A stretch of 64,000 bases of DNA from an uncultured Verrucomicrobiae bacterium. GTDB taxonomy: Bacteria > Chlamydiota > Chlamydiia > Chlamydiales > Rhabdochlamydiaceae. The translations under genes and the position numbers were made by a program. The notes below the pieces were generated by a model that saw only the letters and a program-made list of their open reading frames with translations, was not told where the DNA came from and ran no database searches. Position 1 is the first letter of the stretch. Each line of letters starts with the position of its first letter. This document shows, piece after piece, positions 41,726 to 44,841 of this stretch. The DNA is taken from assembly GCA_963818965.1 (NCBI GenBank), contig CAWFUG010000003.1:8111-72110 (forward strand), in the 5' to 3' direction.

Positions 41726-44700
41726 GACAACACCTCGATCAAGGGATGAAAGGTCAGTTGTAGGCTTCTGTTCCAAAAGTCTAAATGCTCGATCAATTCT
41801 TCTAAAGCGCCACGCTGCTGGAGGTAGATGATGTAAGGATCTTCTTCGTAATGCGCTTGAAATGCCTTCGAGACCTCTTGGGGCGATTGTGTCAAGATGG
41901 ACTTGGCCCAAAGGGGCATGAGAGGCGAGGGAATTTGCTTGGCCAGGAAATAATACTCTAAATAGTTTCCTAAGAGTTTTTTGGGATCTTCTACAGGGAG
42001 ATCCCAAGCGACGCCCTCTTTAGTGAGGAGCAGCTGAGCGACATCGGGGTAGAGACAGCGGTAGGCGAGATAGAGGGGCCAGGCCTGTATGGCACTTTTC
42101 CAGTCTGTTTCCCCATGGAAGAGAAGTCCTTTGTCAGAGACATCAGAGAGCGTGCCTATGAGAGAGATGGGACCAAACGCGGTGGGAATTTCTAAAGGGG
42201 GGAAGAATTTTTTCCCCTCGATTTCATGCGGTTTGCGGAGGGGAGTCCACTCGACAGCATAAACAGCGCCGCATTGAAACCTCTCGAGATGGGTCGAGAG
42301 GGCGTCCATCTCTTCCTGTAACCCTCTTAAGGCGATGTCTTGGAAGATCCCTTGGGGCAGTTTGCCTTTGGCAAGGGCATCATCGAGTGTTTGGGCTTTA
42401 GACTTTTTTAAAGAGGTCTTGCGCAAAAGTCCTTTTTGCAAATAAGAGAGGATGAATTGGTTTTCTTCCTTTGAGACTTCTTCTTTTAAAGAGAGGTTTA
42501 AGACTTTTTGGAAGTAAAAAGAGAGGGGATGGCGCGCGAATTTTCTCAGGTCCTTTAAGTCGACGACGTGTTCTGCAGACGGAAGGTTACCCTCGACAGG
42601 GAAAAACCGGGAACGATTTTCTTTTCCCTTCTGGAACGAGGGACAGCGCATGGGGGGGTGGTCGTAGCGGGTTATTTTTGTGTATTGCGCCAGCTCGTCG
42701 ATGAGAAGGGAGGGAGATTGTGCGTGCGCATCTTCTGCAGAGACCCTCTCGTAGCTGAGCCATAGATAATCTTTGGCGTGCAAGAGGAGATTTAAAAAAG
42801 CGAATCGATCTTCATCGGAGCGCTGAGGGCCTTCCTGTGGCATCAGACAAAGAGAGCTGGGTGATTCTCTCCGTGGAAAGGCGGTCTCGTTCAGTCCCAA
42901 ACAGACGATGATCCGGTGGGGAGAAATTTTCGCCCCATCTAGATGCGTGAAGGTGATTCGATTGAGGTCTCGGTTGTGTTTTTTCCCCGTTTTTTTTGTT
43001 GCGGTATGGCGCAACACGCGCGAAAAACTCTCAAAACTAAAGATGGGTTCCTTCAAATGCGCTAGATCCCTTTCCAACCCTTTAATCTCCTGGAAAAACA
43101 GATCTTTTTCTAAAAGAGTGGGAAAATATTTTTGCAGCAATTTTAAGCAAAAACAGACCCAAGCGCTTCCGCTCCGCTTTTCACTCAAATGAGCAAGATC
43201 CGCTTGTATTTCTGAAAAAAGAGTGAGAAAACGGTTGAAGAGATCGATGTCGGTTAAAGCGAGCACTCCTTCCACTAGGGCACAACCCAAGAGAAGCCGT
43301 TCGATCCCCGCCTCCCAGCTATTGACATTCCCCTGCAATCCTTCGTGTACTTCGGCAGATTCAAACCATCGGCGCAGCTGGCTGATCTCTTCAGAAGAGA
43401 ACGTTTGCATCTGTACTAAGCAGCAAAACACAGCAGTCAGGCTGTAGTTATTCTGGGGCAAGTCGATCAGATCCAAAAATCCGCGCGCCACAGGACTAAC
43501 GTGCGAGAGCTCCAATCCATCGATACAATAACTAAAGGGACCCTGTCCGAAGACCATTTCGATGTAGGGGGTATAGCAAGAGAGATCGGGGCTCAACACC
43601 AATACGTCCCTAGGTTGGTAGGTGCTCTCCTGAAACAAGGCGATTAATCGATCGAAGAGGACTTCTACCTCTCTTTCCTTAGAAATGCTGCTGTGCACTT
43701 GAATCGAATCATCCTCGATCCCCGCTTCGAGCGGGGAGAGGGTGAGAAGAGAGCTCCTCAGTGCATCGAGGAGATTTTTTGGGGAATGGGCGCGATAGTC
43801 ATCGCTCTCCACCCAGGAAAGCTGGGCTACATTTTTGAGATGGAGCCGCCCCAATTTTCCCCAATTTCTCAAGAGGGGATGGTCCTCTTCTGCCATTGCT
43901 TCGAGTTGTTCTAGGCTCGCCGTCTTTACTCCCGATTTTTTTAATTTGAATTGAAGATGGGAAAGTTCTTTTTGCGAGAGAAAGTCTTCCCAAAAATGCT
44001 CTGAAGCAGAGTGTTGGAAGAGGCGAGCGCCGAGAGAAAAAAAGAACTGGAGGTGACAAAAAGAGAGGTAGGAAAACCCAAAGAGAGCTAATTTTCCCAC
44101 AAACTGAGAGCGTGTTTTTAAAATCTCTAAGGGGTAAGAAAAAGGAGAGTGTTCTGCGAAGACTTCTCTCCACAGCCACTTTTGAAAGTCCTCTTTGGGG
44201 CTCTTGAGCCAATTTTCTAAAAATTCTGTCCCATAGAGCCCATAGCGGTTAAAAAGAAGAGCGATCTCATCGCTCAATTGGGCTGTTCTCTTTTGCGACG
44301 CGCTGTGTTGGAGGTACTCGATGAGGGAAAGGTTTTGGTCAGAGACAGGAAGCTCGCAGAGCTTTTCTTCGATGGTGAGCGACAAAGCGAGGAAAGAGGG
44401 GATGGTTTTAAAATGATGTTCCGTTGCAAGCAGGTAAGTAACAGCTTGAGGCAGGGAAAGGATCTGCACACCCGCTGCAATTTGTAAGTTCTCCGCTTCG
44501 AGAAACCTTTGCATTAAAAAGTCTTTTACCTTCTCATCGGGCACGACCACGAGCCGTTGTTCAAAAACTTTATACCCGACGCGATTGAAAAGTTGGCCAT
44601 TGGACCCGCGCGAAAACTCCCGGGATTGAGTTGCCGAAGAGGGGGGTTGTATTTCTTCAATACTACCCCCCTCTTCGGCAATCTCAATCGCGGGGTTTTG

Positions 44701-44841
44701 GCGCGGTCCAATGGCCAACTTTTCAGTCGCGTCGGGTATAGCTTCCTCAAAAAATAAAAAATCGATGAGTCTTTCTGCTAAGACATCCCAATCGTTACTG
44801 AATAGAGCGGGGATCGAATAATTCTCGCAGACATTTTTCAT
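41722..44841 (-). CDS. recC: Exodeoxyribonuclease V gamma subunit with a 56-aa in-frame palindrome-derived insert
   Basis: LFSN, HPLLRNWGKLGR, SIQVH...REVE, RDVLVL.PD...Y.P.I..VF, LGLNE..FPR, DRFAFL, F.RHP; first gene of recCBD. Confidence 0.92.
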   Translation of the reverse strand: MKNVCENYSIPALFSNDWDVLAERLIDFLFFEEAIPDATEKLAIGPRQNPAIEIAEEGGSIEEIQPPSSATQSREFSRGSNGQLFNRVGYKVFEQRLVVVPDEKVKDFLMQRFLEAENLQIAAGVQILSLPQAVTYLLATEHHFKTIPSFLALSLTIEEKLCELPVSDQNLSLIEYLQHSASQKRTAQLSDEIALLFNRYGLYGTEFLENWLKSPKEDFQKWLWREVFAEHSPFSYPLEILKTRSQFVGKLALFGFSYLSFCHLQFFFSLGARLFQHSASEHFWEDFLSQKELSHLQFKLKKSGVKTASLEQLEAMAEEDHPLLRNWGKLGRLHLKNVAQLSWVESDDYRAHSPKNLLDALRSSLLTLSPLEAGIEDDSIQVHSSISKEREVEVLFDRLIALFQESTYQPRDVLVLSPDLSCYTPYIEMVFGQGPFSYCIDGLELSHVSPVARGFLDLIDLPQNNYSLTAVFCCLVQMQTFSSEEISQLRRWFESAEVHEGLQGNVNSWEAGIERLLLGCALVEGVLALTDIDLFNRFLTLFSEIQADLAHLSEKRSGSAWVCFCLKLLQKYFPTLLEKDLFFQEIKGLERDLAHLKEPIFSFESFSRVLRHTATKKTGKKHNRDLNRITFTHLDGAKISPHRIIVCLGLNETAFPRRESPSSLCLMPQEGPQRSDEDRFAFLNLLLHAKDYLWLSYERVSAEDAHAQSPSLLIDELAQYTKITRYDHPPMRCPSFQKGKENRSRFFPVEGNLPSAEHVVDLKDLRKFARHPLSFYFQKVLNLSLKEEVSKEENQFILSYLQKGLLRKTSLKKSKAQTLDDALAKGKLPQGIFQDIALRGLQEEMDALSTHLERFQCGAVYAVEWTPLRKPHEIEGKKFFPPLEIPTAFGPISLIGTLSDVSDKGLLFHGETDWKSAIQAWPLYLAYRCLYPDVAQLLLTKEGVAWDLPVEDPKKLLGNYLEYYFLAKQIPSPLMPLWAKSILTQSPQEVSKAFQAHYEEDPYIIYLQQRGALEELIEHLDFWNRSLQLTFHPLIEVLS
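44571..44740. mobile_element. 170-bp TA-bounded palindromic element inside recC
   Basis: TATACCCGACGCGATTGAAAAGTTGGCCATTGGACC ... GGTCCAATGGCCAACTTTTCAGTCGCGTCGGGTATA. Confidence 0.9.

Follow-up and report, generated by a model that had tools for sequence, protein, structure and literature searches.

A palindrome within recC

The stretch of DNA analysed here (the window) comprises 64,000 nucleotides of contig CAWFUG010000003.1 (GenBank assembly GCA_963818965.1), from an uncultured bacterium that GTDB places in the Rhabdochlamydiaceae (Chlamydiota). On its minus strand lies an intact recC-recB-recD row whose first gene, recC, encodes the exodeoxyribonuclease V gamma subunit, and within recC we find a palindrome that is read through in frame (window 44571-44740, letters TATACCCGACGCG...CGCGTCGGGTATA, or in longer form TATACCCGACGCGATTGAAAAGTTGGCC...GGCCAACTTTTCAGTCGCGTCGGGTATA). 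In our assessment it is highly likely that this is a non-autonomous mobile palindrome of environmental Chlamydiota, akin in behaviour to the protein-elongating Rickettsia palindromic elements (RPEs), which inserted in frame in recC and is tolerated there. The identity of the host gene is given jointly by its Pfam families (Exonuc_V_gamma at residues 91-366, entered from profile position 26, and RecC_C at 759-981), a RecC fold and its recB and recD neighbours; the sequence match of the protein to Escherichia coli RecC (1w36_C) has an E value of 7.8e-33.

The original prediction, made from the letters of the window, had described a near-perfect palindrome of 170 bp inside recC, bounded by TATA, and both the search for arms and the folding confirm it. 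A single-stranded DNA fold of 190 nt around the palindrome reaches -94.8 kcal/mol, compared with a mean of -25.7 (sd 3.1) for 200 dinucleotide-preserving shuffles, none of which folds as well (z -22.4); the palindrome is thus real and far beyond chance. Known structured RNAs do not account for it. Rfam gives no family at gathering score across 44400-44900, and its 12 sub-threshold matches to generic hairpins (AEV_CRE, miRNA precursors), none of them near the gathering score, were dismissed as chance; a tRNA-like origin for the GGTTCGA-like core was likewise rejected, ARAGORN finding 0 genes in the element.

The in-frame insert and the orthologues of RecC

The translation runs from LIDFLFFEEA into IPDATEKLAIGPRQNPAIEIAEEGGSIEEIQPPSSATQSREFSRGSNGQLFNRVGY and on to KVFEQRLVVVP with no stop, so that the earlier reading of 56 inserted codons (168 bases), whose removal restores FFEEA-KVFEQRLVVVP, matches what we obtain. 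Pfam places no family within RecC residues 35-90. We sought RecC in 40 relatives and matched it in 38, the two genomes without a match being 58% and 63% complete, and in none of the 38 does the match to the window protein start before residue 78. Read further upstream, these frames hold a conserved N-terminus, of the form x-x-x-SN-x-x-E-x-LA-x-x-L-x-x-x-LF, a short linker and PFE-x-R-x-VVVP, in 29 of 29 loci. The window RecC has both blocks, ALFSNDWDVLAERLIDFLFFEEA and KVFEQRLVVVP, with 56 extra residues between them that none of the 29 printed orthologue frames carries. When 26 of the 29 orthologues (three mis-trimmed rows were dropped) are aligned with the window RecC by MAFFT, residues 35-90 are gapped in all 26, including the genome of the same genus, G001 (...LAERMINALYFPDLMQRPFEKRLVVVP), and the 34 residues before the insert (..ALFSNDWDVLAERLIDFLF..) align with the conserved SN-x-x-E-x-LA-x-x-L N-terminus. 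The true start of recC thus lies ahead of the element, and the insert is peculiar to this lineage. Two findings had been named in advance as refuting the prediction, orthologues that carry the same 56 residues with no palindrome and a recC start downstream of 44571; no such orthologue appeared, and the start is contradicted by this alignment together with the strand and helix that AlphaFold2 predicts before the insert.

Sequencing runs offer a further view of the site. A contig of 151 nt (depth 3.7) from soil run X2 differs from 44745-44847 at 2 of 103 positions and is then unlike the window; past the match its letters, translated by hand, read ..FLFFE-APQA-FEKRLV.., that is, a RecC N-terminus of the same length minus exactly 56 codons. 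It may come from the recC of a close relative that crosses the site lacking the element, which is weak evidence on its own.

The step by which the element arrived would have been an insertion between recC codons 34 and 35, probably at a TA lying across the codon boundary (GC-T/A-AA). The net gain is 168 bp, or 56 codons, with the element read in the frame T/ATA/CCC ... GGG/TAT/A, which holds no stop; recC thus stays open and should yield a RecC with an extra loop of 56 residues. The insert is presumably translated, and RecBCD function presumably retained. The element most likely persists through tolerance, as a selfish sequence that selection has filtered to permissive in-frame sites, and not as a functional addition.

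Predicted structure of RecC with the insert

AlphaFold2, run on a 27-row RecC alignment, gives a model with a mean predicted local distance difference test score (pLDDT) of 82.5 and a predicted TM score of 0.65. The elements on either side of the insert are confident, namely strand 12-15 and helix 18-31 (block pLDDT 88-90) and strand 96-100, while residues 35-91 fall below 50 and have no secondary structure. Structurally the model comes closest to RecC as solved in E. coli RecBCD, first chain 8b1t_C (E 7.9e-43) and then 1w36 and 7mr1, and matches to RecC chains span E values from 1e-39 to 8e-43 with TM scores of 0.53-0.56. The insert is thus modelled as an unstructured loop in an otherwise confident fold; it is predicted to be disordered and lies in the first (N-terminal) helicase-like domain, where it follows helix 1 and precedes strand 2. 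The host linker at this point already varies in length and sequence among the orthologues.

A repeat family in the same genome

The genome searched amounts to 2.24 Mb on 12 contigs, in an assembly that is 88% complete. Within it blastn finds copies of the element at 65 places and an nhmmer profile built from 11 full copies finds 102, 51 of them 100 bp or longer and 22 full length. Four other copies are 94-96% identical to the one in recC, which points to recent spread, and the recC copy itself would appear to be the product of recent transposition. The ends are well kept: all 11 aligned full copies start with TATACCC, and 10 of them end with GGGTATA, the remaining one with GGGTAT. Among 19 short solo-arm matches, several are mini forms of 65-75 bp that keep both ends and the others are cut-down arms; none of the 19 bounds an element of the length of an insertion sequence (IS).

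Two family arms, one left and one right, also lie 454 bp apart at G000:C8:61891-62344, where they enclose a single-copy open reading frame (ORF) of 108 aa. Judged from its sequence, the product resembles small multidrug resistance (SMR/SugE-like) membrane proteins, and the arrangement could be that of two broken elements flanking a gene or of a gene caught inside an element.

Searching the genome with the element, as had been proposed, returned many copies, several of them in frame in unrelated genes. Open frames of at least 150 aa span 20 of the 51 places of 100 bp or more (26 place-frame pairs), and when the 16 spanning frames of at least 230 aa were compared with Pfam, 10 showed a family above cut-off and an eleventh (Wzy_C) one below it. 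Two of these other genes show host homology to either side of the element. In aroA the copy splits the EPSP synthase domain in frame, residues 30-229 and 289-487 corresponding to E. coli AroA 15-216 and 221-421, with about 59 residues in place of 4; an RNA methyltransferase carries an element at about 215-261, after its TRAM domain (12-64) and before its methyltransferase domain (318-491). For menC host homology is partly shown, MenC_N profile positions 50-93 coming after the element. Family copies also lie within the frames of pepF, an FAD/BBE oxidase, sulP and a leucine-rich repeat (LRR) protein. In pepF, the FAD/BBE oxidase and the Wzy-like, NamZ, UGP3-like and GT90 frames the element is in the first 12-32 codons of the open frame, where it may be coding. 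In the sulP frame (G000:C9:99605-100801) the Sulfate_transp match extends to profile position 236 of 380 and breaks off at the start of the element, past which the frame has 95 codons left; the host gene is possibly cut short, or shifted downstream.

The peptide that the element donates recurs as well. The recC, pepF and oxidase copies share one peptide and the frame that encodes it (IPD.T.KLAIGPRQNPAIEIAEEGGSIEEIQPPSSATQSREFS...), and the equivalent frame of another subfamily reads IPRP.RN.EFE.RESSRDSTIEKGASIEEIQAPFSIVESRGFDALKF.IPDRAGY. Among the full copies the frame T/ATA/CCC is open in 12 of 22 and 11 of 22 in the two orientations, compared with 5-7 of 22 for the other frames. A profile of 12 insert peptides matches 34 proteins at E ≤0.001 among 1.84 billion representatives, and with so few matches the insert is not a common protein domain. 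Pfam, applied to the 16 of these 34 proteins that have at least 190 aa, gave a family above cut-off in 5, one of which looks like the SulP of this same genome; another of the 5, a trypsin/FG-GAP protein (P0022), looks like a chance match and was set aside, and a UvrD/PD-(D/E)XK helicase-nuclease (P0033) is a weak match at E 2.5e-4.

Conservation of the hairpin and its core

Covariation was assessed on an alignment (A3) of 48 elements from many genera, of which this genome contributed 7 and public loci 41. RNAalifold predicts 69 pairs, of which 54 show changes on both sides. Paired cells make up 93.6%. Shuffling the partners lowers this to 73.9%, with 0 of 500 shuffles as high as the real alignment, and sliding them by 1-3 columns lowers it to 30-49%; the covariation score is 0.542 versus 0.180 shuffled and at most 0.152 slid. 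Judging from these aligned sequences, the hairpin is maintained across the family. Nine core pairs never vary, and GAAAGCTCCCGCG in one arm and CCCGGGGCTTTG in the other are essentially invariant. By eye, the core arms (A3 columns ~40-56 and 125-140) fall short of exact complementarity, with a bulged T and two mismatches kept in all subfamilies; these conserved irregularities suggest a recognised folded structure, not a plain inverted repeat.

That the stems change yet stay paired around an invariant core would suggest a dedicated protein that recognises the folded single strand, whether DNA or RNA. A further-reaching proposal, that the family is more than decaying selfish DNA and is the substrate of a new hairpin-recognising machine of Chlamydiota, is one we hold to be unlikely; if true, it would mean a new mechanism of transposition or arm correction, and housekeeping enzymes throughout the phylum would have a source of new protein loops.

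Spread across Chlamydiota

Beyond this genome, the DNA of the element finds relatives in 8 of 40 related genomes (E ≤0.001), and of 8 loci examined with the profile, 7 prove to hold full-length copies. A two-arm pattern of the core (GAAARYTYCYGNG, 45-75 bases, CNCRGGGYTTTGRCG) recovers at least 113 stretches in public species-representative genomes. Among the matches listed, all 80 of 80 records are metagenome-assembled genomes (MAGs), most of them labelled Chlamydiae, Parachlamydiales, Parachlamydiaceae, Rhabdochlamydiaceae, Waddliaceae or Protochlamydia and a few labelled otherwise (Verrucomicrobiae, Acidobacteriota, 'Chlamydia trachomatis', 'Waddlia chondrophila', as given in the records), which fits the chlamydial lineage that had been proposed from the letters of the window. 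Of 401 genomes sampled evenly across the phylum, 60 hold the exact core pattern (43 of 212 genera) and 0 hold a reversed control pattern; no match to the core pattern was found in one family of 30 genomes (1.0-1.4 Mb) or in another of 35. Exact matches number 23 in the window's own genome and 55 in one other. An exact 29-mer of the element tip has 0 matches in public genome contigs, from which the own genome may be excluded.

A copy in another genus also lies in frame, inside a very long open frame (Table 1), and Pfam finds no family in the 770 aa of that frame that were searched. Several public MAG contigs (L084, L093, L113, L116, L140) begin or end within about 25 bases of the element core, and the repeat thus probably breaks short-read assemblies of chlamydial MAGs.

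Ends and target site

In the 48-element alignment the outermost TA is near-universal and the next bases differ by subfamily (TATACC, CTAGTGC, TAGTACC), a combination that fits target duplication of TA. In 46 of the 48 elements the outermost T and A have neighbouring bases that pair as A-U, and the positions after these vary. At the recC site TA duplication may be the event: of the TA and TATA models, only TA yields the net gain of 168 bp, as an element of 166 bp plus a duplication of 2 bp. Mobility as such would be indicated by copy number and similarity only. No full-length IS with the element's ends was found in the 88%-complete own assembly. A search for the Pfam family of mariner transposases gave no match anywhere, control genomes included, and says nothing either way. 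The genome does contain a DDE_Tnp_1 IS of 1.2 kb, as three 99.9%-identical copies and one other match.

Other features of the window

The genes of the row and the remaining family members are collected in Table 1. The listed TTG start of the recB-like gene overlaps the end of recC and is probably over-extended. The second family copy sits between minus-strand genes, the neighbouring ORFs being 29551..30744 and 31074..33176. At the other end of recC, its ATG at 44841 (-) and the TTG of a divergent major facilitator superfamily (MFS) transporter at 44854 (+) are about 12 bases apart (44841-44865), so that the promoters must sit in the neighbouring coding regions.

Table 1. Positions of the element, its host gene and related features (window coordinates unless a contig or locus is given)
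Feature	Position	Strand	Description	Basis
Palindromic repeat element, TATACCC...GGGTATA	44571..44740		170 bp including TA at each end	Repeat search, folding
Outer left arm	44571..44606		Pairs with 44705-44740; 36 nt, 97% complementary	
Outer right arm	44705..44740		Partner of 44571-44606; 36 nt, 97% complementary	
Inner arms	44606-44653 / 44659-44706 (span 44606..44706)		48 nt, 77% complementary, 5-nt tip	
Conserved family core	in inner arms, 44606..44706		GCGCGAAAACTCCCGGG ... CGCGGGGTTTTGGCGC	Columns invariant in 48/48 aligned elements
recC (exodeoxyribonuclease V gamma subunit)	41722..44841	-	Intact, 1039 aa including insert	Pfam, RecC sequence and structure matches
recC codons 1-34, N-terminus upstream of insert	44740..44841	-		Orthologue alignment, AlphaFold2, soil contig
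56 insert codons (168 bases)	44572..44739	-	RecC residues 35-90, IPDATEK...NRVGY	
Insert peptide of RecC			First row of insert-peptide alignment A1	
Insert junction peptides (predicted)			..FFEEAIPDATEK.. and ..NRVGYKVFEQR..	
recB-like gene, directly downstream	38447..42007	-	UvrD-helicase, UvrD_C; open	
recD-like gene	36762..38450	-	AAA_30, UvrD_C_2, RecD SH3; open	
Second family copy	30842..30979	+	138 bp; other subfamily with different termini	nhmmer C3:38952-39089, score 59.7
Family fragment	10016-10048		33 bp	
DDE_Tnp_1 IS copies	G000:C1:260607-261808, plus C2 and C9 (loci L190-L192)			
In-frame copy in another genus	L052:1478-1660, G020:C5		..IGLRQSPGIEIVEDGSSIAEIQPPSSTTQSQELS.., inside 1414-aa open frame	

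Relation to known repeat families

The RPEs were reportedly described by Ogata et al. in 2000 and 2002. They are palindromic repeats of about 150 bp that lie in frame in many metabolic and housekeeping genes of Rickettsia, encode a conserved peptide and have no transposase (in the parts of the review PMC10969869 consulted). The recC element resembles them in being a dispersed short palindrome (170 bp, 102 places), in having copies with a conserved peptide in frame in unrelated genes (recC, aroA, the methyltransferase, menC, pepF), in belonging to an obligate intracellular lineage and in encoding no transposase. The prediction of an RPE-like, protein-elongating selfish repeat in a chlamydial lineage is thus supported by the repeat family and by the in-frame copies elsewhere. 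The likeness is nevertheless one of behaviour, drawn from descriptions of RPEs and not from sequence comparison; the host phylum is Chlamydiota, not Alphaproteobacteria, and the chlamydial family spans at least 43 genera with an invariant core and strong arm covariation, while most of its copies elsewhere lie outside genes.

The Correia elements of Neisseria and the enterobacterial ERIC are bacterial miniature inverted-repeat transposable elements (MITEs) with TA-flanked ends. The chlamydial element shares with them a length of 100-170 bp, terminal inverted repeats (36-nt arms, 97%), TA at both ends, no coding capacity of its own, many dispersed copies, deletion derivatives of 65-75 bp and occasional in-frame fusion to ORFs; it differs in being one long hairpin throughout and in that no autonomous parent IS was found, and its TA duplication would be an interpretation of the ends. 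Intragenic ERIC, BOX and QMITE1 are named in the excerpted MITE review (PMC10969869). Compared with MITEs of the IS630/Tc1-mariner type, the TA flanks are present in the chlamydial element but DDE_3 was not found in the assembly. Repetitive extragenic palindromes (REPs), for their part, are 20-40 bp long and extragenic, with a hairpin structure conserved more than sequence and with REP-associated tyrosine (RAYT, Y1) transposases (PMC3733652, in part). The chlamydial repeat likewise forms a hairpin whose structure is conserved over its sequence, but it is about 170 bp long and sits inside genes, and the genome has no Y1_Tnp (PF01797) match.

We found no description of such elements in Chlamydiae in full-text searches of the literature, a scope outside which subscription journals and supplements fall. 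In the portions consulted, the MITE review of 2024 (PMC10969869) covers RPEs with 'chlamyd' absent, and the Waddlia genome paper (PMC2878342) reports many repeats of more than 200 bp with 'palindrom' absent. The recC element is one clean example, among many copies, of an already known kind, the in-frame palindromic repeats and MITEs.

Weighing the explanations

Several observations weigh against an in-frame, tolerated mobile palindrome in recC. The assembly holds no DDE_3 (IS630-type), Y1_Tnp or rve match, although at 88% completeness the absence of a transposase is not established, and the DDE_Tnp_1 IS was rejected as a parent, its terminal repeats (CTTTGTACAGGACAAAATTT, ends CTTTGTACAGGAC...) being unlike the ends of the element. 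The X2 contig, the sole empty site seen, is diverged at the junction, is a single contig of 151 nt and leaves 30 of about 48 loose letters to hand translation; the three sequencing runs each contain 4-7% of the sampled words, none covers 44254-44744, and among the joints listed for them there is none across the element. The abutting copies at C7:8531-8717 and C8:290690-290874 fit both TA and TATA models of the target. Low pLDDT is expected of any segment absent from the alignment and is weak evidence of disorder, and an mRNA hairpin of -95 kcal/mol could lower recC expression. Finally, of the 73 elements in public loci that reach 120 bp, only 3 sit within an open frame at a depth of 60 codons or more; with the comparable count for this genome at 8 of 51, in-gene copies are nowhere the majority, and this genome has many of them.

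The most serious competitor, which we nonetheless regard as improbable, is that the insertion inactivated or crippled recC and that the frame is open merely since the event is recent, the gene being a pseudogene in the making. The recC copy is indeed young, being 96% identical to three others, and a very stable hairpin would stand 100 nt into the recC mRNA. However, the 1039 codons of recC contain no stop or frameshift, recB and recD are intact, the rest of the RecC fold is predicted confidently with the insertion in a loop that varies among orthologues, and essential-type genes such as aroA also carry in-frame copies. Less probable still is a 5' leader that contains the element, with the true recC start downstream and the long ORF an accidental upstream extension through an open element. 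Such an arrangement would suit the many family copies in the first 12-50 codons (pepF, FAD oxidase, Wzy-like, UGP3-like, NamZ, GT90), for most of which no upstream homology is shown, and the frame T/ATA/CCC is open by itself in about half of the full copies (12/22, 11/22). In recC, though, the 34 upstream residues align with the N-terminus in 26 of 26 orthologues and correspond to a confidently predicted strand 1 and helix 1, and a start at the next Met past the insert (residue 110) would also remove strand 96-100.

We give as little credence to a lineage-specific functional loop of RecC, or an exapted peptide, to which the palindromic DNA is secondary. Peptide positions G24, I27, I30, Q31, P33 and R40 are invariant across copies and the same frame is reused in several genes; yet the same DNA occurs about 100 times in the genome, mostly between genes, the loop is in no orthologue and the peptide profile matches just the 34 proteins given above, so that the peptide is conserved because the repeat DNA itself is. 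Least credible of all is that the element is removed after transcription or translation, like an intron or intein, to leave a mature RecC lacking the insert: a strong RNA hairpin speaks for it and nothing further, whereas there is no Rfam family at gathering score, no tRNA-like gene and no Pfam family in residues 35-90, and inteins are far longer than 56 residues. A tolerated, protein-elongating mobile palindrome is thus the explanation that we retain for the insert in recC.

Implications

For genome work on this group, the family calls for caution in annotation and in domain-boundary calls in chlamydial MAGs, and the element accounts for some contig breaks, several public contigs ending in it. 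The copies in recC, aroA, menC and other core genes amount to natural loop-insertion experiments, among them in RecBCD and EPSP synthase. Protein-coding palindromic repeats have so far been known mainly from Rickettsia, and we meet them here in a second, unrelated obligate intracellular lineage, which suggests that they arise generally when small mobile hairpins enter compact genomes on which selection is relaxed.

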